DNA of 64,000 nucleotides, from NCBI GenBank assembly GCA_964016885.1, contig OZ024742.1, positions 72,230,001 to 72,294,000 on the forward strand. The letters run 5' to 3'. How positions within the stretch are numbered: position 1 is the stretch's first letter; each line of letters opens with the position of its first letter. Positions 16,716-62,857 of the stretch are shown piece by piece. The DNA comes from Eledone cirrhosa (lineage: Eukaryota). The notes beneath the pieces are model-generated. The model ran no database searches, was not told the DNA's origin, and saw only the letters and a list, made by a program, of their open reading frames with translations. The position numbers and the translations under genes are program-made.

Positions 16716-17435
16716 AAATGGAAAAGAATGAAATGAAATTTCATTTCTCACTCTTAGTACGGCTGATAAATATAAGTATGTATACGTACATACATATATG
16801 TATACAGACATACAGTAGTATGTATATATATACATACATGCACACATATATATATGTACGTATGGGTTTACCAAACATTTATTATAATGTTCGCTTTGTT
16901 TGTAAACAAACAGCCCGAATTAAGCCGTACAGTGTTTGGCAACCATCGTCGCCCTTTTGTTCAACACTGACAAAAGAACGATGAACTAGTTTCAAGCTTA
17001 TTAGCTATCGTCAGCATCATATACCTTCCTATCAGATGATTGAACGTTTGAAAGTATATACTTTCCTTATGCATATTAACGGCTGAGCAGCCTAATTTGC
17101 ATATCGAGTGAGTTAGTCAGCCGGGCATACCGAAAACGATAAATGGAAAAGAATGAAATGAAATTTCATTTCTCACTCTTAGTACGGCTGATACTTAAAT
17201 ATAAGTATGTATACGTACATACATATATGTACACAGACGTACAGTAGTATGTATATATATATACATATATGCACACATATATATATGTACGTATGGGTTT
17301 ACCGAACATTTATTATAATGTTCGGTTTGTTTGTAAACAAACAGCCCGAATTAAGCCGTACAGTGTTCGGTAACCATCGTCACCCTTTTGTTCAACACTG
17401 ACGATAGCTAATAAGCTTGAAACTAGTTAATCGTT
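16716..17435 (-). ncRNA. Dispersed ~1.6-monomer copy of the 428-bp hammerhead repeat, ending in an inverted core fragment
   Basis: Same monomer as 31558-42304. Hammerhead core on - at 16978-17020 (AUGAUG-CUGACGA-..-GAAA-CUA-GUU-CAUCGU). Inverted core piece on + at ~17398-17435. Confidence 0.8.
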
Positions 17436-19420
17436 CCAACGGAGCGCGCAAGCTTCATTTCTTTCCAATCTACGCAAGTCTTCTGCACACAGTGCCCAGG
17501 TCTTACTATCATGCAACATTGCGGGTTGTGTGCACGCATCATACAGTCTGCCTTTCATTTTGAGGAAGAAGCCTTTTGTAGCTAACAGTGCTTGTAGCTC
17601 TCTGAACTTCTTCCATCCCATTCTCACTCTGGCTACTGTACTTTCAGAACACCCACCTCTGCTGCTAATTTGGTCACCCAGGTAGCAGAATCTGTCTACT
17701 GCAACTACTGAACCTTCTTGGAATTTGATAGCTCTTGTTTCCTGTGGTTGTTTGCTGCTTACTGCCCCGGTGCGGTGGCTTCATGTAAAACCTATATTTT
17801 TAGCTAAACTACCTGAGATCCCACTACATCTCTTGTGCACCCGTAGTTTGCATTTGGGACAGAGGATAGAATTTCTACCTACACCTTTCCTACACACCGA
17901 GCAAGGCCATCTTCCTGAGGGGATCAGGGCTCTGTATTCCCTTCTACTTACTAGGAACTTATTCTTTGTCTGGTTGACTTTAAGACCCTTTGTTTCTAGG
18001 CCATGCTTCCAGGTTGGAATTTCTTCTCTAATTCTACCATAGACTCAGCTATGAGTGTAAGATCATCCACGTACAGAAGTTTCCATGGGTAGCCGGTCTT
18101 AAACTCCTTTGTATTAGAATCCTAACTTTGCTGACTGCTCCCCTCTACATGGTTTGTACAGCCTTCACAAGCCACTCATCTACTTCTCATTTTCTTAGAG
18201 CCCACCAGATTATGGCATGGGGGACTAATTCCAGGTAGAACATCTTACTTTTAACTAGGTACTTCTCCTGTAGCTGCTTCACCAGAAAGAGAGCATCTGT
18301 TGTGCTTTTACCTGGCACAAATCCAAACGGCATCTCATCTAAATTTACCTGGTACCTAATCAGCTGTTATTTTCATGACCTGGTCCATCAACTTGATGCC
18401 TCTATAGTTTCCTCTATCTAGTGCATCTCCTTTGCACTTGTAGCAGTTGACAAAGATGCTGCTGCGCCAATCATTCAGTTTGACACCATTTGGTTAACAA
18501 GACGTGTGGTTAAGGTGTGACCCACTGACCCAGATGCTTTCAGCATCTTGGCTACTATCCCCAATGGAGTAGCTACTACACTGTTGCTGACTTGTACGGT
18601 TGGGCCCTCTGTAGGGTCCACTTGGGGTAGGGTCTCTTTCTTCCATGCATTCTGTTCATCATCATCATTTAACGTCCATCTTCCACGCTGTTATCTTTCA
18701 CAATGGCTCTTCCATGTTACTTTCTTTTCAGCATCTGTGAGGGCAAGTACACCTTTATCATCACAGACTCACTTCTTACCAATGACATCACAATTTTCCC
18801 TAACGCACTGCCTCACAATCCTGAACACCTCATGTTTCTGGTCTTCATGATGCAAAGCATGCTTGAATTTTTTATCTTCTGCTTTCCTCCTTACTAAGTA
18901 TACTTGTTGTCTAGCTTCCCTCTGGCGTCTATATAGTGTACCCTGCTTCCCACATTCTTCCATTTTTTCAATGCTTGTCTCTTGGCCTTAATTTTCTCAT
19001 CTACCTTACTGTTCTACCACCAAGTCGCTCTCCTTCTCTCTATAGTCCTGCTCCATCCACAGATCTCATCTGTCACTTTCAGTAGATTATCTTTTGGGAA
19101 CTCCAAATGCTCTTCTATATTGAACATCTCAATCCGTTTTTCCTTATAGGCACCGAGAAAAATCTCTCTAAATTTGTTACTGGCTGAGGGCTCTTTCAAC
19201 ATCCATTTCCTTCTCATCCACGTTGCCCTCTGTCTCCAAGTTCATCTAGCTCTGATAATGAAGTCTACTAGGTTATGTTGGGAAGTGCATTCCTCTCCAG
19301 GGAAGGATTTTGTGTTTACCACCGTCACTCTATCTTGTTCTCTGGTAAGGATAAAATCTATCTGACAAACATGTTCACTAGATCTACAGGTGATCAGTTG
19401 ATTGTTGAGTTTTTTGAAGT
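17436..19420 (-). mobile_element. Degenerate RTE LINE (APE end to RT)
   Basis: NFKKLNNQLITCRS..QIDFIL, GWKKFRELQALL and a zinc-finger remnant; many disablements. Confidence 0.8.
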
Positions 19421-28529: not shown

Positions 28530-29770
<1,241 letters not shown>

Positions 29771-31561: not shown

Positions 31562-34500
31562 GGAAAAAAAAAATGAAACGAAATTTCATTTCTCACTCTT
31601 AGTACGACAGTTACTTAAATATAAGTATGTATACGTACATACATATATGTATACAGACGTACAGTAGTATGTATATATATATACATACATGCATACACAT
31701 ATATATGAACGTATGGATTCACCGAACATTTATTATAATGCTCGGTGTGTTTGTAAACAAACATCCCGAATTAAGCAGTACGGTATCTAGCAACCATCGT
31801 TGCTCATTTGTTCAACACTGACAAAGGAATGCTGTACTAGTTTCAAGCTTATTAGCTATCGTCAGCAACGTATACATTCCTGCCAGATGGTTGAACGTCT
31901 GAAAGTATATACTTTTTTATGCATATTAACGGCTAAGCAGGCTAATTTGCATATCGAGTGAGTTATCGGCCGGAGTACCGAAAACGATAAACGGAAAAAA
32001 TGATACGAAATGTTATTTCTCACTCTTAGTACGGCTGTTACTTAAATATAAATATGTATACGTACATATATATATGTATACAGACGTACAGTAGTATGTA
32101 TATATATATACATACATGCACACACATCTATATGAACGTATGGATTCACCGAACATTTATAATAATGCTCGGTGTGTTTGTAAACAAATATCCCAAATTA
32201 AGCCGTACAGTGTCTAGCAACCATCGTTGCACATTTGTTCAACACTGATAAAGGAACGCTGTACTAGTTTCAAGCTTAATAGCCATCGTCAACAACGTAT
32301 ACCTTCCTGCCAGATAGTTGAACGTCTGAAAGTATATACTTTCCTTATGAATATTAATGGCTGAGCAGGCTAATTTGCATATCGAATGAGTTATCGACGG
32401 AGTACCGAAAACGATAAACGGAAAAATGAAACGAAATTTCATTTCTCACTCTTAGTACGGCAGTTACTTAAATATAAGTATGTATACGTACATACATATA
32501 TGTATACAGACGTACAGTAGTATGTATATATATATACATACATGCACACACATATATATGAACGTATGGATTCACCGAACATTTATTATAATGCTCGGTG
32601 TGTTTGTAAACAAACATCCCGAATTAAGCCGTACAGTGTCTAGCAACCATCGTTGCTCATTTGTTCAACACTGACAAAGGAATGCTGTACTAGTTTCAAG
32701 CTTATTAGCTATCGTCAGCAACGTATACATTCCTGCCAGATGGTTGAACGTCTGAAAGTATATACTTTTTTATGCATATTAACGGCTAAGCAGGCTAATT
32801 TGCATATCGAGTGAGTTATCGGCCGGAGTACCGAAAACGATAAACGGAAAAAATGATACGAAATGTTATTTCTCACTCTTAGTACGGCTGTTACTTAAAT
32901 ATAAATATGTATACGTACATACATATATGTATACAGACGTACAGTAGTGTGTATATATATATATACATACATGCACACACATCTATATGAACGTATGGAT
33001 TCACCGAACATTTATAATAATGCTCGGTGTGTTTGTAAACAAATATCCCAAATTAAGCCGTACAGTGTCTAGCAACCATCGTTGCACATTTGTTCAACAC
33101 TGATAAAGGAACGCTGTACTAGTTTCAAGCTTAATAGCCATCGTCAACAACGTATACCTTCCTGCCAGATAGTTGAACGTCTGAAAGTATATACTTTCCT
33201 TATGAATATTAATGGCTGAGCAGGCTAATTTGCATATCGAATGAGTTATCGACGGAGTACCGAAAACGATAAACGTAAAAATGAAACGAAATTTCATTTC
33301 TCACTCTTAGTACGGCAGTTACTTAAATATAAGTATGTATACGTACATACATATATGTATACAGACGTACAGTAGTATGTATATATATATACATACATGC
33401 ACACACATATATATGAACGTATGGATTCACCGAACATTTATTATAATGCTCGGTGTGTTTGTAAACAAACATCCCGAATTAAGCCGTACAGTGTCTAGCA
33501 ACCATCGTTGCTCATTTGTTCAACACTGACAAAGGAACGCTGTACTAGTTTCAAGCTTATTAGCTATCGTCAGCAACGTATACCTTCCTGCCAGATGGTT
33601 GAACGTCTGAAAGTATATACTTTCCTTGTGCATATTAACGGCTGAGCAGCCTATTTTGCATATCGAGTGAGTTATCGGCCGGAGTACCGAAAACGATAAA
33701 CGGAAAAAATGAAACGAAATTTCATTTCTCACTCTTAGTACGGCTGTTACTTAAATATAAATATGTATACGTACATACATATATGTATACAGACGTACAG
33801 TAGTATGTATATATATATACATACATGCACACACATATATATGAACGTATGGATTCACCGAACATTTATAATAATGCTCGGTGTGTTTGTAAACAAATAT
33901 CCCAAATTAAACCGTACAGTGTCTAGCAACCATCGTTGCACATTTGTTCAACACTGATAAAGGAACGCTGTACTAGTTTCAAGCTTAATAGCTATCGTCA
34001 ACAACGTATACCTTCCTGCCAGATAGTTGAACGTCTGAAAGTATATACTTTCCTTATGAATATTAACGGATGAGCAGGCTAATTTGCATATCGAATGAGT
34101 TATTGACGGAGTACCGAAAACGATAAACGGAAAAAATGAAACGAAATTTCATTTCTCACTCTTAGTACGGCTGTTACTTAAATATTAGTATGTATACGTA
34201 CATACATATATGTATACAGACGTACAGTAGTATGTATATATATATACATACATGCACACACATATATATGAACGTATGGATTCACCGAACATTTATTATA
34301 ATGCTCGGTGTGTTTGTAAACAAACATCCCGAATTAAGCCGTACAGTGTCTAGCAACCATCGTTGCTCATTTGTTCAACACTGATAAAGGAAGGCTGTAC
34401 TAGTTTCAAGCTTATTAGCTATCGTCAGCAACGTATACCTTCCTGCCAGATGGTTGAACGTCTGAAAGTATATACTTTCCTTATACATATTAACGGCTGA

Positions 34501-46168: not shown

Positions 46169-46171
<3 letters not shown>

Positions 46172-47350
46172 CAAACACACGGAGCATTATAATAAATGTT
46201 CGGTGAATCCATACGTACATATATATATGTGTGCATGTATGTATATATATATATACATACTACTGTACGTCTGTATACATATATGTATGTACGTGTACAT
46301 ACTTATATTTAAGTAACAGCCGTACTAAGAGTGGGAAATGAAATTTCGTTTCATTTTTTCCGTTTATCTTATCGTTTTCGGTGCACCCGGCCGATTAACC
46401 CACTCGATATGCAAATTGGGCTTCTCAGCTGTTAATATGCATAAGGTAAGTATATACGTTCAACAATCTGACAGGAAGGTATACGTTGCTGACGATAGCT
46501 AATAAGCTTGAAACTAGTACAGCGTTCCTTTGTCAGTGTTGAACAAACGAGCAACGATAGTTGCTGGACACTACGGCTTAATAAGGGATGTTTGTTTACA
46601 AACACACCGAGCATTATAATAAATGTTCGGTGAATCTATACGTACATATATATATATGTGTGCATGTATGTATATATATATACATACTACTGTACGTCTG
46701 TATACATATATGTATGTACGTGTACATACTTATTTAGCAGGGTGGTAGAATGATTGAAGGTCGTTAGTTGCCAATGTGGTAAGTAATAGTATCCTTGTTG
46801 AATTATCTTGTCGACATAGACGTGAGGGAAGGTCCCTCGATCTATTTACCATCTTTGTATTTACGATATTCCTTTCGTCAGGTCGCCAATTCCAGCAGCA
46901 TGGATTATAGATGTTATTGAGACACGAGTAACATAATAATGATTTCAACAGCAGAAATTAGAGATGAAATGTATGTTTATTTTTGATGTAGCACAAACAA
47001 TGTTTGTTAACTTATATGGTTGAAGTTACAGATAAAAAGGTTACAAAAGGGAATGTGCCATTGCGCTGGAAAGCCGGCGAGGCTAGGGTGCAATATCTCA
47101 CTGTTACATTATGCGTGTTGCTGGCTCGAAGTTCCTGGTACAAGAGAGAGATTCTTCAAATCTTCGCGGGGAATTTCTTCCTCAGGGCGCGTAGGGATAC
47201 ATCCTCTTCTACTGGCGCTGATTGGCTGAACTGAGCCAAATCACGCACAGAGAATGTATGTGAGCCCGCGGAATGTAGGTCACTACACTTATATTTAAGT
47301 AACAGCCGTACTAAGAGTGGGAAATGAAATTTCGTTTCATTTTTTCCGTT

Positions 47351-47418: not shown

Positions 47419-48167
47419 TGCATGAATGAATACACGAAGCTTTAGATTTAGTAGAATGTACAACCACTGATTCCAGCTATCTGCACTATCATATATTTTG
47501 GTTTCTTTTAATTCCCTGGGAAATTGGTTGACCAAATGCTTTGCTTAATTGCTTTTCAAAAATAATTTTGAGATAGAGCGCCCGTGATGTTTGCTCTAAT
47601 CTGATTAGAGCAAACATCACGGGCGCTCTATCTCAAAATTATTTTTGAAAAGCATTAGAAATGCGCAACCGGTAAAAACTTAAAACCAAAACTGAATACT
47701 AACCAATACTTATTACTAATTTTTACTTATTCTTAATTAAACTATTTTTCACTGGGAACAATTTGTCAGCATTTTTCTTTTCCTTTTACCAATATATCAC
47801 AACTCGTGTGTTACACCTCTATTCTCTTATATATATATACACACAGTGGTGGACTGGCCAGGTTGCCCAATGACAAGTGGGGCCAGGGGGGGGGGGGGGC
47901 ACGATAGCATTGCAGGAGCCTACACTAGCATTCCAGGGCCCACTGTAATATCTTAGGGACCAATGCTTTGCTTTAAAAAAATACCTGAAGTATAAAAAAG
48001 AATAACATTTTTTTTAAATAAAAAAAACAATTAAGCAAAGCATTTGGTCAACCAATTTCCCAGCGAATTAAAAGAAACCAAAATATACGATAGTGCAGAT
48101 AGGTGGAATCAGTGGTTGTACATTCTACTAAATCTAAAGCTTCGTGTATTCATTCATGCTTGAAAAC
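47413..48167. repeat. Inverted duplication (~138 bp) with an internal perfect ~52-bp-arm hairpin (47549-47654)
   Basis: 47413-47550 is the reverse complement of ~48028-48167. The hairpin is centred on gctctaatc-t-gattagagc. Confidence 0.85.
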
Positions 48168-48261: not shown

Positions 48262-48924
48262 AGTTATATTTAATTTGTTGGGATACAACAAGCAAATATT
48301 TTTATAACTGATATAAAGCACTCAACAAATTTTTGGAGTAAAAATACAATAATTTCGCTTCATCATCTCATAAAATTACATTAATACAACACTCTCTCAC
48401 TTAGGGTTTTCTCTCTTTCTCTTTCTTTAGTTTTTCTTTTGTTTTCCTTCTTTGGGTTTGCTCTTTCTTTCTTTTTCTTTTTCTTTTTCTTTTTCTTTTT
48501 CTTTTTCATTTTCTTTTTTCCCTATTCCAACAGCTTAATTTAAATGTATGGGATTTAAACCTCTCCGACACTAATTTGCATATTAGACCAATAATAAAAT
48601 TAGTAACCCCACTATCCGGGAGCTTCCAACCGACATGGTCGCATTCTTTAAGGGTATGTCAATATTTGTTTATAAAACTGATCTATATTATATTTTATCT
48701 GATGAAAGCACACCATAATTTTCTTTGGTGTCCTTGAAATATGTATAATGAAATAAATATGGTTTTATAAATATAGTTTCCATTTGTTAATATATTGTAT
48801 ATATATATATATATATATATATACTTACACATACATACGAACTACTGACAAAATAATGTTTGGTATCAATGGGTTAAAGACATCTGTCAAATCAATTAGT
48901 GGTGAAGGTGGTGTATATATATAT

Positions 48925-49424: not shown

Positions 49425-49491
<67 letters not shown>

Positions 49492-49499
49492 CATATATA

Positions 49500-52400
49500 G
49501 GGCGGGTAAAATTCCCGAGATCCATGGACGAGTTCTCTCCAGCGGTCTCTGTCCCTCATCATCGCTGACATGTCCGTCCTGCGTCTCCAACAGACCAGTG
49601 TCTGTCCTTAAGGCATCAACATATGTCAACCTCGATCTCCCTCTTCTAGTCTGTCCTTTTAGAGGCTCCCACAAGAGCACTGAGTGCAGTATCAACTCTG
49701 GATGTCGGTGAGCATGTCCAGCTAATCTCAATCTGCTCTGTGTTACTTTCGAGCTGACTTTTGGGAGGCCCCCCATACAGCTCTGAGTTCTTCATCCTCA
49801 GTGTATACTGATTAATGTTCAGAGCCATCCTCAGCATTATCATGTAGCACCCATCCACCATCTGAGTGAGTTTCTTGGTCAGTGTCCAACTCAGACCCGT
49901 ACAACAGCACAGACTCCACTACAGCAACGAAGAGGCGGATCTCCAGGTCTTTACGAAGGTTCGACTTCCACACCAAACTCAAACTGTGGCACGCCGCCCA
50001 GGCTTTGCTCTTCCTCTCAACCACATCATCTTCCGTATTCCCAATCTTTGCTCCCAGATACAGGAAGTCCTCAACCAATTCTAGCAGCTTCCCGCCTGCA
50101 TTCGTAATCTTCTCTGGCTTCTTAATATTCTCTACCAGATACTTCGTCTTAATCTCATTCATTCTCAGCCCCACACTCATCGACACAGTCTCCACCTCCT
50201 ACATCAACTCTTCTGCCTCCTTCACTGCGTTTGTCACCAGAACTATGTCGTCGGCAAATTCAGCATCCGATATTTTTTCGCCTTAACTCTGAGCCAATGT
50301 TACAGTAAAACCAGAGTCCTCGTGTTTCTCCAGCGCAAGGCGCATACAATAGTCCACTGATATGATAAAAAGTAGGGAGCCAATGTATCTCCCTGGAGCC
50401 CTCCAGCTAGTATCTCAAAGAACTCCGTTATCCCATCAGGTGTAATGACTTGGGCTTTGGTGTTGGTGTAGAGCAGTGATATCAAATCCACTATCTTCTT
50501 GGGGATTCCATAAGCCTGTAAGATCTTCATCAGGCAGTGACGGTCCACAGAATCAAAGGCCTTCCTAAAGTCAATGAAAACCATGACAGCAGGGAGTCTC
50601 TTTGCTCTAGCTCCCTCTAATATCCTCCTCAACACCAGGATGTTACTGGTGGTTGATCTTCCCTTTCTGAAGCCGTTCTGGTTGTCTCTGAGCTTCTTTT
50701 CCATCTTGGGCTGGATCCAGTAAAGAATCATCCTGTTGAGTGTCTTTGCCACAAATAACGTCAGTGAGATCCCCCTGTGGCTGCTGGTGTTAGAGAGATC
50801 TCTCTTCTTTGGCACTGGGACGATGTTACTGATCCTCCACTGGTTCGGGGCACTCCATTCTCCAGTGCCTGGTTACAGCACCCCAGGATGATATCATCAA
50901 AATCACACCTCTTCATCACCTCTGATGGCACTCCATCTTCTCCATAAGCCTTGTCCTCCTTGATCTTCTTCTTGCCTCTCTGAAGCTCCTCTCTGATGAA
51001 AGGTCCTGTCTCAATATCCAGTTCCACAAACAGCCGCCTAATCTCCCCACTGTTCTGGGTTGTAGAGGGCGGCACTCCTAGCTGGGTCCGAAAATGGTCC
51101 AGCCATTTCCTCTTCCTATCCTCGGGCCCTGTTCCCTGGATCTGACTCGAACCTCTTCTCTTCCTCCCTGTGATCTCGTTGATGATCATCCAGCTCTCCT
51201 CACACCCAGACCTGTCAACCGCTTTCTCCACACTTCTGATCTTCTCTATCAGCGACTCCTCTCTGGCCTCAGTGTAAGCGGTACAGAGTTCTTCCCTCAA
51301 CACCTCCATATTCTCCTTACTCTCCTCCGTTGGATCAGCATAGAATTGGTCCTTGGCAGCTTTCAGGTGTTCTCTGGCTGCACACACTTTTGGGTATGCA
51401 GAGCTGACGTGCTTCCTCTTCTCTCTCCTCGGCACCAGGGTCTCACTTGCTTCCGTCACTGCATTGGTGAAGTACCCGCACCTCCTCGTAACACTCTCCT
51501 CGGTCCCTCCAATCTCTCTCTCCTCTGCCTCTCCATACAGAACACTGAACCTGTTCCTCACTTCTACTGTGAACCTCTCCTGTAGCTTATCACATTCCTT
51601 GAAAGCTCCCCAGTCATAGATTGCTCTCCGCGGTTGAGCCTTACTCTTTCTTAAGCTCACCCGGACCTCACTCATGAAAATCCGGTGGTCACTACCCAGT
51701 GTACTGAAATAGCTGTATGGTTCTGTGTTCAGAACACTATTCCGCTACTTTTTCCTCACTGGAAGGAAATCAATCTGGCACTTAGACAGGTGAATATCTG
51801 AGATGTAGGTCCACATCTTCCCCGGATTCTTCCTAAACCTTAGGTTGGTTGCCATCAAGTTCGCCTCCAGCAGGGTGTCTCTCGGTAGTCTTCCATTTCG
51901 GTTGATGTTGTTATGAAAGTACCAGCAAGGATCTTCACTGCTCTCCTTACTCAGATGTGCATTGAAGTCCCCCAGAACAAGCAGGATGTTGTGAGCTTGT
52001 GTGGTATTGACATCTCTACATACCCCCTTATGGAACTCCTCCACACTCACATTACTGTCTCCCTCGGTTGGACTATAGGCTGAGATGACTGTCAATTTTG
52101 GGTTTCCATTGAAGGTCACCCTCAACACTCGCGGGAAGACATGTATGACTTCCCTCACCAATAGATTGGTTTTTGTACTGAAATCAAAACCCACTCCTTC
52201 TACTGCAGCATTCGTCGTGTTCCTCACTGCTAATGTGGTGATGAGCTGGCTCCTCTTCCCAATCATCACACTCCTCATGGGCTCATCGTGTAGGATACTG
52301 TGTTCTTGGATCGCAAGTATCTGCATACCACTCTCCTCGAACAGATGACCCAACTCCTCTCTCTTCTCCAGTGTCCGAACAGTCCTCACATTCAGAGTGC

Positions 52401-52796
52401 CCATTTTAATGGCTCTTCTGCAGGACAAAACTGCATTCTTTATATTTGTCTCAGAGACAGCTGATCCATCACCCACTGGCCCTCCCTGTGGCTCTAAGCC
52501 AGCAGAGTCATAACGACCATACTGTTCCTTGACAGTGTAGTTAGGGGCCCTGGCCCTAGTGCTGTTAAATCGACTCTCCATGGTTCTTTTCAGTGGCTGA
52601 TAATACCTTACCGGCACCACTCGAATAAGGTAATTATTTAAGCCTTAAATGGGGCCCTAACAGGTGCTACTACTCCGGGCCAGAGCAGACCAGGGAGTGA
52701 TAACAACTAAGGGGGGGGGGGTAACACCACATTACCCACACCTCCTGAACTCCCTAACTGGAGCCTTGCCGCTGGATGTAGTTTAATGTCATACCC

Positions 52797-52802
<6 letters not shown>
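49500..52802 (-). mobile_element. Near full-length RTE-like LINE (APE + RT), frameshifted
   Basis: MGTLNVRT, LAIQEH, SAYSPT, LGDFNAH, QNGFRKGRST, FIDFRKAFDSV, LQGDTLAPY, FADD, FLYLG, LLYGSE. Confidence 0.9.
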
Positions 52803-52877
<75 letters not shown>

Positions 52878-53290
52878 AGGGCGGATAAAATTCCCGAGAT
52901 CCATGGACGAGTTCTCTCCAGCGGTCTCTGTCCCTCATTATCGCTGCCATGTCCTGCGTCTCCAACAGACCAGTGTCTGTCCTTAGGGCATCAACATACG
53001 TTAACCTTGGTCTTTATCTTCCAGTGTGTCCATGCAGGGGCTCCCACAGGAGCATTGAGTGCAGTGTCAACTCTGGATGTCGGTGAACATGTCCAGCTAA
53101 CCTCAATCTCCTCTGTGTCACTTTTGAGCTGACTTTTGGGAGGCTCCCATACAGCTCTGAGTTTTTCATCGTCAGTGTATACTGATTAGTGTTCAGAGTC
53201 ATCCTCAGCATTCTCGTGTAGCACCCATCCACCATCTGAGTGAGTTTCTTGGTCAGTGTCCAAGTCTCAGATCCGTACAGCAACACAGAC
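52878..53290 (-). mobile_element. Second 3' fragment of the same LINE family
   Basis: Near copy of 49500-49915 (LLYGSETWTLT...RLRLAGHV). Confidence 0.85.
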
Positions 53291-53382
53291 TATATGTAAA
53301 AGGTAAACAGAAATAACAACACAATCGGTACAGTATATGGAAGGTATATATTAGGTTAACGCTTGATATAGCAGGAAGAGGG

Positions 53383-53418
53383 TCTTAACGTTTCGGACGC
53401 TAGTCCTTCATCAGAAGA
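53383..53418 (-). ncRNA. Minimal Penelope-type hammerhead
   Basis: UCUU-CUGAUGA-A-GGAC-UAGC-GUCC-GAAA-CGUU-AAGA, with palindromic AACGUU in place of helix III. Confidence 0.65.
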
Positions 53419-53510
53419 AAGAATGAGAAATAAAATAGATTAAGGGGATGGGCTGGATGGAATTGGAAATGCATATACATATATATATGTATATACACAC
53501 ATACACATAA

Positions 53511-53595
<85 letters not shown>

Positions 53596-53599
<4 letters not shown>

Positions 53600-54163
53600 A
53601 ATTTCGCATTTCTAAAGAAACACGGTTTTAGGAAGCCGTAGCTATGCAAACACCGGGGCTAACGCCCTCGGATGGTGTCAGGCAGAAGCAAGGGGGACAA
53701 CCGTCTATGCATTTCAGGCTTGGCTGGCCTTCTTCAGGACGGTCCCTCCCATCGCTTGCAACTGCTGGACTTGAAAACAGTCGAGAATATATAGTTTTCT
53801 CGTCTGTGTAAATGAGGTGATTAATCTCATTTGTATATGAAGCTGCATAAGTTGGCTCAACTTATAATAGACAAGAAATAAGATTTCGCTTCAAGCATAG
53901 CTTTATACAATATGTATAGAAATTTCGTATTTCTAAAGAAACACAGTTTTGGGAAGCCGTAGCTATGCAAACACCGGGGCTAACGCCCTCTGGTGGTGTC
54001 CAGCAGCAGCAAGGGGGACAACCATCTATGCATTTCAGGCTTGGCGTCCTGAAGAAGACCAGCCAAGGTTATCCCCGGTATTTGCTTCCTAAAACCGTGT
54101 TTCTTTAGAAATACGAAATCTCTATACATATTTGTATCGTTATACAAATGCTTGAAGCGAAAT

Positions 54164-54164
<1 letters not shown>
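53596..54164 (-). ncRNA. Second hammerhead-bearing repeat family: 321-bp monomer (1.4 copies) plus inverted terminal segment
   Basis: Period 321 (53641 vs 53962). Core on - at 53700-53743: ACCGUC-CUGAAGA-AGGC-CAGCCAA-GCCU-GAAA-UGC-AUA/GACGGU. Inverted piece at 54046-54164; (TG)n and (TA)n flanks. Confidence 0.8.
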
Positions 54165-54223
<59 letters not shown>

Positions 54224-54609: not shown

Positions 54610-57600
54610 AGGTGGGGAAAAGATGAATTAATGTTAAATAGAAGAAAAAGGTCCACAAGATCGGTAATTTGGGCAGAATCACTAGAGCCCATAGTTATGT
54701 AGAAGAGATTACTATATGTAGGAAAAATTACTATATAGGAAAAATTATAAAAACACAAATAATGCGGCTCTTATCAATATCAACAACAAAACATACAGCA
54801 TAGTAAATAAATTCAATATTGAAGACAGAACTGAACCCTTGGCACTGAAAAAAACACATTTTAACCTGAAGGATCACAAATCTAATTTCAACTCTAATCC
54901 TTCTATAAGACTTATATGCCCTTCTAAATCAGACATTGGCATCATAAGCAAAAAAAATCTGGATAGAATTATCCCACAATTAAGAAAACACGTTAATTTA
55001 CTACTCTGGGAAAACACATCCCAAGTAATTACTTGGTTTACTAATATTGAAAATAAATCCTCTGCTTCATTTCTACAATTCGATATAGATGCATATTATT
55101 CCTCTATATGACCCATACTCCTGAACAAAGCCTTGATATTTGCCAAAAATAGATCAGACTTAACTATGGATGACATCAATATTATCACGCACGCTTGACA
55201 AACACTACTTGAATTTCAGAAGGAATTGTTGGACCAGAAATACATATAGTAATCTCTTCGACATAACTATGGCTCTAGTGATTCTGCCCAAATTACCGAT
55301 CTTGTGGGCCTTTTTCTTTTATTTAACATTAATTCATCTTTTCCCCACCTTAAAGGTGGTTTATATCGTGATGACTGTCTTCTTCTATCCTCTAATCTTA
55401 GCCTATCAGAAATTGAAATAAATAAAAAACTTATTAGAACTTTCCTCAAAGACTATTATAATCTCACTATTACATTTGAAAACACCAGTAAAATAGTCAA
55501 TTTCCTAGATATAACTATGGACCTATATACAGGAATCTACCAACCTTACCATAAATCTAACCAAAACTTGCATTACATACACTCACAATCTAATCACCCT
55601 AGATCTATCCTTAAAAACCTAGCATATAATATCTCACTCAGAATCATGATGTATTCGATAAAAACGCGCCCTTTTATAATGAAACTTTAGCTAGAAGTGG
55701 CCATAAGAACAAATTAGTCTATATACCTTGCACCAATAATATTTCAAACACAACCTAATATTACCAACAAACACCAAATGAAAAACCCACACCTAAATGC
55801 CACTCATACTACACCTAAAAACACCAACCCAAAACTTAATTTCTCTACCTCTTCTCACATAAAAGATAATGACGTTCAAAAAACTATTCACCCTAATACT
55901 CTTATATATGTCAACAACATAACTAACAAAATTCCTAGTAATCAGGCTAAAACATCAATTAATCTAACTAAACCTATATATAATAAAATCACTAATAGTA
56001 ACTCTATCAGTAAACCTCCCGATACATCATATAAATATAAGAAACAATGTCGAAACCGTAATAGATGGGTTACTTGGTATAATGCTCCATTTAATCTACA
56101 GATTAAAGACCATATCCCTAAAAAAAATTCTTTGCTATCCTGGAGAAAAACTTCCCACCAAACCATAAATACCATCAAATTTTAAATAGATCTACTGTCA
56201 AATTTTCCCACTCCACTACCAAGAATATACAACAGAATATAAGTGCTTACAACATATATAAGTGTAAAAAAAAACATAAATATACCACCAACATATCAAA
56301 CCAACCATAATAATACTAAAATAAACGAAAACAAACCACCTTCTTCACCTATAATAGGTCCCGTAATAATCTCCAAAACAAACAGAACTCTACTAGCTCC
56401 ACATCCCCTAAATTATCACCCACCAACAACCTGTCTAACCATACTAATCTAATTACAACCCATTCTAAACCATACATTAATGAAAATAGTAACACTAATA
56501 CCACTATAGATAACACAATTAACTCTCCTGATACAATATTTACGAATGGGTGTAACTGTAGAATCAAAAGAAATTGCCCATCAAAGGGAAATTGTCTTAT
56601 TAATAACATATTCTATAAATGTGTAATTAGTACTAAGGACTCCACTCAATCCTATATAGGAGCTACGTCTAACCAATTTAAAGTAAGATTTAATACCCAC
56701 AAACATAGTTTTTAAAATGCCGCATTAGCTAATACAACCTCCTTGGTTGAAGCAATTAATAATTATAGAAAGAAGGATATTGATTGCAACCTGACCTGGA
56801 GCGTGCTCAAAAGGGCCATCCTTTATCAAAATAGCAGATATGAGTGTAGGTTATTCTCCCAAGAACTATTTGAAATCATGAAATCTAATGATATCCTATT
56901 AAATAAGCGACAGGAGTTAATTATATCATGCAATCATAGAATTAGAAAAACCTTCAAATATTATAAACTTAATTAATATATACCTCACTCTTATATTTTA
57001 CAAATTATTATAATTAATTTAAAAATTGTTTTTTAATTTAGTTAACCTATAATTAGATATTTACTACTAAGAATTTCATAATTTTATTTCCCTCCTGCAG
57101 CTCACTTTACCTAAAGTTATCTTTAACCTCACTACTTCTTTTAACCGCATCCCCTATCTATCACATTTAATACCTAGGATTATTAAATATAATTAATATC
57201 TTTAATATTATGGATGTTTAGATAGATACACTTTTTATAAAATTTTATCTATTTCAGTCTTTCTATATATATTTTTTATTTTATTTTTTTTTTTACTTCT
57301 TTATTTATCACATTCATAAGAATTAATATAATTTTAATTCTGTAATTAATTTAATTTCCCTTTATGTATCTAGGTTCCTTGAAATTTAAACAGGAGTAGT
57401 ATTTCTCACTAACACTCTCATCCCACAAAAAATTCATTTCCCTTCGTTTTTAACAGCATTCTTTAATAACATCAATTTTTTTTTTGGGGGGGGGGGGGGG
57501 GGGATCCTTCACAATTTCATTGACTTGAGCTCATTTTAACCCCTATCTTTCTCTTCCCCATTGTATTCTTTTCATTCAGAGCATAAATTTACATTCCTCC

Positions 57601-57928
57601 ACTCCTAGCATAAAGTTCTACTACTGTTATTCTATCAACTTGACCTCTAACTCTTTTCTATGGTCAATTCAAAACCTGTTCCCAAACAGACTTTTTGTAT
57701 TAATACTGTGTTTCTTTCAATAAACATACTTCATCATTTCTGAAGATGGCATATATAAGTGACGGTATATATATATCTCCTCTGATAATTTGTAATATTT
57801 TTTTACATAGATCTTTAATATGATATACATACCAACACACATATATATCCCAGAAACGATCGTAAAATGATGACTTTTTCAATATAAGGAACCTGTTCTT
57901 TGTTTTTATTTCATTGTTTTTATTTATT

Positions 57929-59699: not shown

Positions 59700-62600
59700 T
59701 ATTTAATTATGGACTAGAGCATATGAACAACACCGAGGATCGCAAAATCATCATCGGAGCAGACAAACGCCCAGCTTCAGAACATGAACGCAAGTTCAAT
59801 GCACCTGTTACTGATGAAGTTACAATCATAATGGTTGATGAACAGCATGAATGTCATGACATTGTTTTACAAAAACGAAGTGGACATTTGAAGCGAATAT
59901 GTGAAACTCATAAGGCCTATGACTCACTCCAATATCCGCTCATCTTCTGGAATGTTTAAGATGGATATCTTTTTCAGTTCTGGCAAATCAACCCAGGAAC
60001 AGGCCAAGAAACTGGCCGATCAATCATCTGCAAAGAATGCCTATCATTTCATGTAACGGGATCACTTCAACAAAGTTTTGCGATTCAAAGAAGTAACCAG
60101 CCACTTCATGGTGGATATGTATGCCAAAATTGAAACAGAAAGATTGGGTTTCCTGCGAAGGAATCAAAATAAGTTGAGGACAGAAATACATCCACCTTAG
60201 AGATGCCATCAATTATGGTGGCGACCCAAAAAATATTGACCAACCAGTCATACTGCCAAGCTTCAAGGGAGGACCGCATTACATGCATGAATATATGCAT
60301 GATGCAATAGCCTATGTCAGAAAATTTGGCTGGCCGGATCTCTTCATTACATTTACATACAACTCAAACTGGACAGAAATATCCAATGAATTATTTCCAA
60401 ATCAGAAACCGAAGGATCGACATGGCCTTATTGCTCAGGCGTTTCATAAAAAGCAAAAAAAAAAAAAACCTCCTCAAGTTCCTAAAAGAAGGAAGAATCT
60501 TTGGTGAGCTTAGTTCCTGGATGACCACTATTGAATGGCAGAATAGGGGACTTCCTCACTCTCAAACACTAATCTAGTGCAAGGAGAAGATAAGACCAGA
60601 TGATATCGACAAGATCATTTCAGCGGGGTTGCCTGATAAAGATTGCGATCCAGCTCTTTGAAACCATCAAGACTAATATGGAGTCATCAATCCAATTTCA
60701 CTCGACATGCAGGATCAAAAATGTAGCAAAAATTATCCTAGAGCTTTTATTCAGGAAACTCAAGCTGAAAATGATAGATATCACCTAACTGCAAACCTAA
60801 CAGTTCGGGGAGAGGAGCTGACCATAGACAATCGATGGGTAAGTCCCATACAACAAATTGTTGTGCAAAGCCCTAAAAGCTCATATCAATGTTGAGTATA
60901 GCAGCTCCGTCAAAGCAATACTGTATGTTATAAAATATATCTAGGACAGTAACATGGTTGCCTTTGTTACTAACAAGGAGCTCAATGATGTTCGGCTGGA
61001 TGAGGTCAAACGGTATCAGACAGGTCGATACATATCCAGCAATGAAGCTATCTGACAGATACGCCGCCTAGCAGTGGTCAATCTAGCAGTTCACCTGGAG
61101 AATGGACAGAGAATGTGCTTCACTGAAACCATTGCTCATTAGTTGGTACAAGCAACATCCAACACAGCTCAAACTGCTTTTTTTAAACTCTGCCAGAATT
61201 ATGAATTTCCCTCCTGTACACTGAGATTCCAACATACTTCACCTGGACGAATTGTAAAACCTGGAATCTAAGGAAACAGGATCATTTAGTGGACGGTAAT
61301 GAAGTCATGGCAAGTGATGCTATTGGGCGTGTTTACAATCTACGGTTACTTCTACATACTGTTCGAGTACCAACGTTATTTGAGGATCTCGGGTGCTTCG
61401 AAGAAAAAGTGTGTGCAACATACCAAGAAGCAAGTAAGCAGCATGGACTCCTCCATGACAATGGACATTGGAAGAAGACCCTAGAAGAAACAGCAATCAC
61501 TCGAGTAGCCATTCAAATAAGGCATTTGTTTACTATTATGCTCATAGCATATGGAATTGAAGCTCATCTACTCTGGCAGGAATCAAAAACAGTATGTCAA
61601 ACGACTATCTACACCTAACCCAAAGACACCATGACAATATGTATATAGAATGTTCCCCCAGCATTTACAATCAAGCTCTCTGCAACTTGTCCCATCAAGT
61701 TCAAGCAATGAATAGCATATTAACTAACTACGGGATGCCAGAGTCGGAAGAACCATGAAGAAATGGAGGTAGCACAAAGAAATTTTCAGGAGACAAATTA
61801 CGATATTCGTGTCTTGCGTAGGTTTGTGGATGAAAATGAACCTCAAAATAACAGGAGAGGACTTTTCTTCATCGATGATCTTGCTGGCACAGGTAAGATA
61901 TTCCTCATAAACCTCCTTCCTGCAAAAGTTCCTCAAAAGCAACATATTACCCTTATTGTGGCTTCAAGTGGCATTGCAATAACACTTCTGGATGGAGGAA
62001 GAACTGCACACTCCATGTGTCAGCTGCCCATAGACCTCACATGGCATGAACAATCGTTTTGCAACATCGGAAAGAAATCACCCAAAGGCAAGCTCCTACA
62101 AACATGCAAAATGATCATTTGGGATGCAGCCACCAGCCATAAACGCACAATTGAAGCCTTGGACTGGACAATAAGAGACCTGAAAGAAAATACTTGCATA
62201 ATAGGAGTGACAATAGTTCTTGCTGGTGATTTCTGACAAACTCTGTCAGAAATTCCCTGAGTGACCCGAGCTGATCAAGTCAATGCCTGTCTGAAATCAT
62301 CCTATCTCTGGCCCAATTTTTAACGACTGAGCCTTACAACCAATATGCCAGTGCACTTGACTGGTGATGAAGATGTCAGTGAGTTTGCCACCCAACTACA
62401 TAAATTGGAAAATGGACTTCTTTAAAAGGATTCCAACGACCAGATTCAGTTGTCATTTGACCATATCATTGAAACAAAACAAGAACTGATAGCCAGAGTC
62501 TTTCCAAACATTCAGATCAGACAATGTGATTCCAAATGGCTCGGTGAACGAACAATCTTAGCACCGAAAAATGTTATTGTGAAAGAAATCAACAGAAGGC

Positions 62601-62857
62601 TACTGGATATATTACTGGGAGAGAAAAGATGTTACAAATCTGTTCACACAATCACTTCCCAGGACCAGGTTGTAAACTATCCAACTGAATTTTTTAACAG
62701 CATGGAACTAGCAGGAATTCCTCCACACAACCTGATAGTGAAGCTTGGAGCATCGGTTATATTACTTCATAATCTGGATCCCCCAAAACTTTGCAATGGC
62801 ACAAGACTCATTATTAAAAATATGATGCCTAATGTCCTAGACGTCACAAACATGTGA
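59700..62857 (+). mobile_element. Decayed Helitron Rep/PIF1-like helicase coding region
   Basis: YDSLQYPLIF, PDLFITFT, EWQNRGLPH (Rep), AGTGK, ASSGIA, GGRTAHS, LAGDF, LCNGTRL; many stops. Confidence 0.9.

Follow-up and report, generated by a model that had tools for sequence, protein, structure and literature searches.

A 321-bp hammerhead-bearing repeat family of Eledone cirrhosa, probably copied into TA microsatellites by a PLE enzyme

The segment at 53596-54165 of the analysed window very probably represents the decayed insertion of a repeat family that encodes no protein, carries a hammerhead and has a 321-bp unit. The copies of this family are likely made by the reverse transcriptase (RT)-endonuclease of a Penelope-like element (PLE) and placed into TA microsatellites. 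The window is a 64,000 nt stretch of the 3.0 Gb genome (contig OZ024742.1; G000:C3:72230001-72294000). Judged from its sequence, the repeat appears to add a new family to a known class of element, the animal non-LTR retrozymes, i.e., non-autonomous PLEs. We found no description of it in the literature searched; it may be contained in Repbase, Dfam or the supplements of PMC8557442. The family itself is ordinary, since animal retrozymes are known and several per genome are normal.

PLEs have been named as candidate mobilisers of retrozymes (Cervera & de la Pena 2020, PMC7229834), and retrozymes have been presented as non-autonomous PLE derivatives (Li, Clavereau & Pollet 2026, 10.64898/2026.07.22.740005). 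So far this link consists of hammerheads in common, co-occurrence and pLTR kinship. The 321-bp family adds evidence from insertion ends, which follow the tail rule of PLEs and show that the cut site is read through, in a genome with intact candidate partner enzymes. Together, insertion ends and resident enzymes make the proposed step from circle to cDNA testable.

Structure of the Insertion

The locus (Table 1) holds a 133-bp direct repeat (53592-53724 versus 53913-54045, 92% identity) with a spacing of 321, which gives 1.4 units. The sequence-only reading had described a partial tandem of this length with an inverted terminal segment and microsatellite flanks, and all of these are present. 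The inverted arm consists of deleted pieces of the unit and ends at one of two preferred end positions of the family (site B, see below), as a PLE-type tail. Since microsatellites lie on both flanks, target-site duplications are unreadable. The longest ATG frame in a doubled unit is 45/56 codons, and with 321 bp and 43% GC the unit has the short (~300 bp), low-GC, non-coding monomer that is typical of retrozymes. The three segments include one complete hammerhead; the second unit begins at q193, inside loop II. Two consecutive complete hammerheads are absent at 53596-54165, and the window copy would not be classed as "active" by the criterion of 10.64898/2026.07.22.740005.

Table 1. Features at and around the 321-bp insertion (positions in the window; q, position within the unit)
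Feature	Position	Strand	Remarks
(TG)n microsatellite	53520..53596	.	(TG)38; adjoins the minus-strand arm at its 3′ end (site A)
Complete 321-bp unit	53596..53916	-	q1 = 53916, q321 = 53596; 43% GC; from direct repeat and fold
Predicted helix I extension, long interrupted stem	53678..53771	-	pairing predicted to be better in L020 than in the window copy
Type I hammerhead	53699..53744	-	helix I 6-7 bp, CUGAAGA, helix II 4 bp, GAAA, AUGCAU, AUA
5′-truncated second unit, q193-321	53917..54045	-	hammerhead present only as its 3′ half; from direct repeat
Inverted arm	54046..54165	+	hammerhead 5′ half (q176-198), followed after internal deletions by q281 to ~q39
(TA)28 microsatellite	54166..54221	.	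abuts 3′ end of the inverted arm
Broken Hydra-type PLE, separate insertion	~54610..57925	+	RT, then GIY-YIG; own 80-bp inversion; terminal hammerhead core at 57740

Other repeats in the window are a broken LINE-type element (49489-53289, minus strand; RVT_1 match at 50303-50872; interrupted by microsatellites), a broken Helitron-like region (~59700-62857, plus strand) with a PIF1 helicase match on 61724-62233, and near-perfect hairpins at 47555-47649 and 28534-28637. The hairpins are likely MITEs, and the one at 28534-28637 recurs in several loci.

The Hammerhead of the 321-bp Unit

For the hammerhead, a 6-bp helix I (ACCGUC/GACGGU), CUGAAGA, helix II AGGC/GCCU, AUGCAU and an AUA triplet had been listed from the sequence; each was located on the minus strand from 53744 to 53699. 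The order in this direction is GACCGUC, CUGAAGA, AGGC/GCCU with the loop CAGCCAA, GAAA, the AUGCAU palindrome, AUA and GACGGUU, and the predicted cut lies between 53706 and 53705. Scanning with a descriptor that demanded at least 6 bp for helix I and at least 4 bp for helix II gave 0 matches on the plus strand, the only strand scanned, in each of 20 base-shuffled windows. Compared with 100 dinucleotide shuffles, the fold of the 321-nt unit has a z of -5.4, and it includes helices I and II; helix III is absent from the MFE structure of the monomer. No Rfam hammerhead model matched the element alone, and none was among the best 150 of 309 matches for the whole window, which were microsatellite-driven miRNA and snoRNA models. 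As the Rfam models miss the motif, the identification of the hammerhead rests on the descriptor. The intact motif was present in 61 of 82 loci of the family, which had partly been chosen by that motif.

The canonical metazoan type I hammerhead has a helix I of 6 bp, a helix II of 4 bp, a short helix III and a palindromic loop, and is active as a dimer (PMC4209133); the 6-bp/4-bp/palindrome design is common to both.

Copies in the Genome

A first look at the genome gave 2,697 candidates for the unit, and the 40 that were scored showed 93-95% identity (the window copy itself aside). The exact intact-core pattern matched 208 times and an exact 29-mer 830 times, compared to 0 for reversed controls. 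From these matches it is a fair inference that the copies number in the thousands. Among 81 distinct loci, the longest same-strand run had a median of 1.36 and a maximum of 2.36 units, and both strands of the unit occurred in 49. From the counts among L001-L094 we left out 13 duplicate or segmentally duplicated loci (L033, L036, L042, L047-52, L063, L077, L092, L094). Seven near-identical insertions, L046-L052, lie in a ~59 kb segmental repeat at G000:C1:143.35-143.80 Mb.

Two intact hammerheads in direct tandem were found at 10 of 82 loci, and two 3′-half motifs one unit apart at 39 places in the genome. A genome-wide tandem search demanding CUGAAGA twice had 0 matches because the core position N7 varies. 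The search for longer arrays that had been suggested from the sequence led to one array (L199) of ~10.3 units, ORF-less and the sole place in the genome with three motifs in a row. Its 10 core-bearing units have a private helix I variant in common and differ pairwise by 11%, and the array ends at site A; it could have grown by local duplication. Thus, the family does occur as ORF-less tandem arrays, but most of it is dispersed with PLE-style ends and not satellite-like.

Insertion Ends

The 3′ ends of the segments are fixed: 109 of 136 lie at site A (q314-321) or site B (q39-57). Counted from the predicted cut, the two sites are ~110 and 150-165 nt downstream; ~40-55 nt separate them, and both are at TA-like letters. 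The 5′ ends are scattered; a pile-up of 5′ ends at q196 proved to be an effect of alignment and selection and was not used. A microsatellite follows 83 of the 109 site-A/B ends, compared to 8% of random window positions. Non-standard 3′ flanks numbered 15, and a PLE protein was reached only at L009/L094.

Two outward-facing arms (within 120 bp) were present at 47 loci. In 33 of these insertions both ends could be classed, and in 28 one arm ended at A and the other at B (p = 2.7e-5, an approximate value, because the A end class was widened after q1-13 had been seen to align with (TA)n). An independent set, from which L219, L222 and L226 were left out, had 13 two-armed insertions and followed the A+B rule in 8 of 10 classed cases, which makes 36 of 43 for both sets together. 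The window copy obeys this rule as well. Segments of one insertion mismatched at 12-13% of diagnostic letters versus 49% between loci.

PLE insertions combine a partial tandem and an inverted 5′ arm with a one-ended tail (PMC8557442). This tail has been explained biochemically by two internal RT start sites (PMC11167929). Three traits of PLE-mobilised sequences (partial tandem with inverted 5′-truncated arm, tail at one end, microsatellite bias) are found in the 321-bp family; the end architecture matches, but the tail is ~40-55 nt here versus the published 30-40. The fixed 3′ and variable 5′ ends, the outward inverted arms, the A+B rule and the microsatellite targeting are marks of retrotransposition. 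They speak strongly against a satellite, MITE or Helitron-like repeat that spread at the DNA level, through recombination or rolling-circle copying of DNA, and whose hammerhead is incidental. The 10-unit array and the Helitron-like PIF1 remnants in the window would suit such an origin, but three motifs in a row occur at only one place and the 11% difference means that the array units are not homogenised. We regard a DNA-level origin as extremely improbable.

The Template and the Cut Site

An earlier count, in which 81 of 81 loci spanned the cut site, was biased by selection and was set aside. It was replaced by 30 copies chosen solely by the sequence 3′ of the cut. Of these, 29 match across the cut site; in the 30th the upstream half is present, with a small deletion. 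Since none of the 30 copies begins at the predicted cut, the template was not a cut linear monomer, which leaves a circle or an uncut multimer, at about even odds. The diagnostic letters common within an insertion are compatible with both.

The best explanation would run as follows. Tandem sources of the unit would be transcribed, and the hammerheads would pair via the AUGCAU palindrome and then cut; the 321-nt monomers would possibly circularise. A PLE protein would nick (TA)n, and cDNA would begin at two internal sites ~110 and 150-165 nt past the cut, one per DNA end. Copying of a circle or of an uncut multimer by this protein would leave arm length not limited to one unit.

Alternatively, the family may be a non-autonomous PLE passenger in which the hammerhead is a leftover that rarely cuts, with uncut read-through transcripts as sole template and no circles. 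This alternative, which has the mobility part in common with the best explanation, is conceivable, although we consider it rather unlikely. It would agree with the 0 of 30 copies that begin at the cut, with a lizard PLE that needed no cleavage in vitro and gave no reads ending at the site (PMC11167929), and with the 8 of 9 Xenopus retrozyme dimers that stayed uncleaved (10.64898/2026.07.22.740005). The canonical 6-bp/4-bp/palindrome architecture (PMC4209133) argues against a leftover, as does the concentration of source-lineage variation at N7 and unpaired sites, which suggests selection on the fold.

This variation was compared in 33 full units picked by whole-unit score. N7, a free core position, is the most variable column and differs in 17 of 33 units, versus 20 of 396 other core cells; part of the N7 variation is CpG decay. 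Of 14 lineage-diagnostic columns, 11 fall on positions that the predicted fold leaves unpaired (p = 0.003); the remaining 3 keep the pair by changes between Watson-Crick and G-U, and two-sided compensatory change was not seen among the 14. The column for L020, which was out of register, was left out here. At the level of copies, decay amounts to 5% in the core, 7% in the helices and 4% in the rest of the unit, and is thus no lower in the ribozyme, so most copies are neutral; 22 of 33 units have kept an intact core. Source elements look constrained and inserted copies neutral.

Putative Partner Enzymes

The broken PLE of Table 1 lies 450 bp from the 321-bp insertion. The protein of its intact relative L126 has the RT first and then GIY-YIG, with RWR, DKT, a CxCx5C linker, CxxC and CxH; CCHH is absent, as read by eye from the translation. 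The Hydra clade is defined by a C-terminal GIY-YIG, RWK-like and DKT motifs, CxCx5C, CxxC and CxH, and no CCHH (PMC8557442). By domain order and motifs, and with RWR for RWK, the neighbouring PLE can thus be assigned to the Hydra type, an assignment made without a tree. An assignment to Naiad was dropped, as domain order and motifs are Hydra-type (PMC8557442). Pfam left five PLE fragments in the window unrecognised.

A first look gave 33,178 candidates for the neighbouring PLE family, several with open frames of 828-834 aa. In its intact copies the ORF is preceded by a hammerhead that has a long helix II domain and a ACGAUCGU palindrome. In the window copy (57732-57871, plus strand) ~100 nt lie between CUGAAGA and GAAA, an unusually long helix II domain, which is conserved in L097, L192 and the intact copies. 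Hydra-type PLEs are very abundant in this genome, with 33,000-57,000 first-look candidates per query and at least 5 families; some have intact 830-930-aa frames and copies that are 97-99% identical, and the clade has been described from a few dozen families.

It had been considered that the unit might simply be the pLTR of an adjacent autonomous Penelope element. The neighbouring PLE has a terminal hammerhead of its own, which is unrelated, with no sequence match to the 321-bp unit. The unit was not the terminus of any of the five Hydra-type families examined (one of them sampled from a single copy), and a 321 piece occurred in only 2 of 92 PLE-centred loci, in neither case as the terminus of the PLE. 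These termini thus give no sequence link to a partner. A broader form of this idea, in which the units are solo or truncated pLTRs of an unsampled autonomous PLE family and not an independent element, draws on PLE termini with type I hammerheads, which yield partial tandems and inversions (PMC4209133, PMC8557442), on the short distance to the PLE in the window, and on the PLE sample, five families of a larger number. On the other hand, the copies did not extend into a common ORF at any of the 81 loci, where the 5′ side is more of the unit itself; 30 additional loci picked by pattern were without a Hydra-protein match; and the 10-unit array is ORF-less. Together with the different terminus of the neighbouring PLE, this makes a pLTR origin very unlikely.

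Hydra elements nearly always have a (TA)n target (PMC8557442), which makes a Hydra-type PLE the likely partner, and we consider a Hydra-type enzyme most likely behind the 321-bp family. A microsatellite preference is also found in Naiad and Neptune PLEs (PMC8557442). At L094:4494-7360 (G000:C2, ~214.54 Mb) a 321 arm is joined directly, with no microsatellite between, to a Hydra-type fragment from the endonuclease to the 3′ end; this fragment extends to its own 3′ terminus, where (TA)n follows, and the rest of the unit is missing downstream. A template switch could account for this single case, as could a PLE that inserted later with a deletion. The full proposal, that the 321-nt RNA is a circular transposition intermediate copied by a Hydra-clade enzyme in a rolling circle from two fixed starts, with L094 as a template switch, is put forward tentatively and we would not expect it to hold in all its parts. 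If true, it would provide a ready pair for testing a retrozyme-moving enzyme and circles as template.

Comparison with Known Systems

Animal non-LTR retrozymes resemble the 321-bp family in their ~300-bp, ORF-less monomers with less than 45% GC and a type I hammerhead, in the occurrence of monomers, dimers and multimers, in several families per genome and in co-occurrence with PLEs (PMC7229834; 10.64898/2026.07.22.740005). The palindromic helix III loop resembles that of the axolotl HHR_Amex1. Unlike these retrozymes, the 321-bp family consists mostly of dispersed insertions of 1-2.4 units and is without a sister pLTR among the five Hydra-type families. We did not find its two-site end rule described in the accessible portions of PMC7229834 or 10.64898/2026.07.22.740005; the sample of the latter comprises 31 vertebrates, three insects and a coral, and cleavage was seen in 1 of 9 dimers.

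The Chlamydomonas MRC1, a non-autonomous PLE (Craig et al. 2021, PMC8557442), likewise shows partial tandems, head-to-tail multicopy insertions and microsatellite bias. Chlamys elements are mostly without hammerheads, and their non-autonomous forms have 3′ sequence in common with the partner (PMC8557442), whereas the 321-bp unit has a hammerhead and no such common sequence among the families examined. Hydra-clade PLEs are similar in (TA)n targets, terminal hammerheads and insertion architecture (PMC8557442), but they code for an RT and a GIY-YIG endonuclease, and the hammerheads at their termini have no sequence relation to that of the 321-bp unit. In the Poseidon PLE of Anolis (Frangieh et al. 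2024, PMC11167929), as proposed here, two internal RT starts define the tail; RT starts 111-118 nt into the ORF and the main template is unprocessed RNA. Poseidon is autonomous, belongs to another clade and starts without a target match, in contrast to the TA-like letters at sites A and B.

Other Hammerhead Repeats

The sequence-only reading had taken the unit as unrelated to the 428-bp hammerhead unit of the window but of the same design. Both parts hold: the top match between the two is 15 nt (E = 0.05), and the 428-bp unit also has a hammerhead with a short, 4-bp helix II and a palindromic helix III (CUGACGA, palindrome ACUAGU, triplet GUA, an extra base after A9). In the 428-bp array, 17 of 22 cores counted have C at position 3. 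Copies of the 428-bp unit, too, are dispersed and occur next to TA runs as partial tandems with inverted arms (16728-17437, 46169-47340; L060, L066, L091, L146, L147), which makes the 25-unit array the long form of this family.

The view that the genome hosts several retrozyme-like families was borne out in that multiple hammerhead repeat families exist; some of the hammerheads, however, are termini of autonomous PLEs. Several retrozyme families per genome are the published norm, with 16 hammerhead families in one coral genome (PMC7229834). A third hammerhead in the window (53385-53420, minus strand; CUGAUGA, an extra A, GGAC/GUCC, palindrome ACGU) lies in a dispersed repeat (~53290-53470) that also occurs in L019, L023, L075 and L143. 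The sequence at 48691-48755 (plus strand) is a hammerhead of the type that a second Hydra-type family has at its terminus (L094, L141, L152, L197). Further type I families, with the helix III palindromes AUGCGCAU, ACCAUGGU, ACAAUUGU, AGUACU, ACUAAUUAGU and ACCGCGGU, occur in flanking repeats of L002, L021, L024, L028, L059, L062, L087, L136, L174, L175 and L178. Finally, a GAAAUUUC palindrome lies at most ~25 nt from the 3′ end in both the 321-bp (53596-53612) and the 428-bp unit (31575-31600), possibly as a common recognition signal, or by chance.
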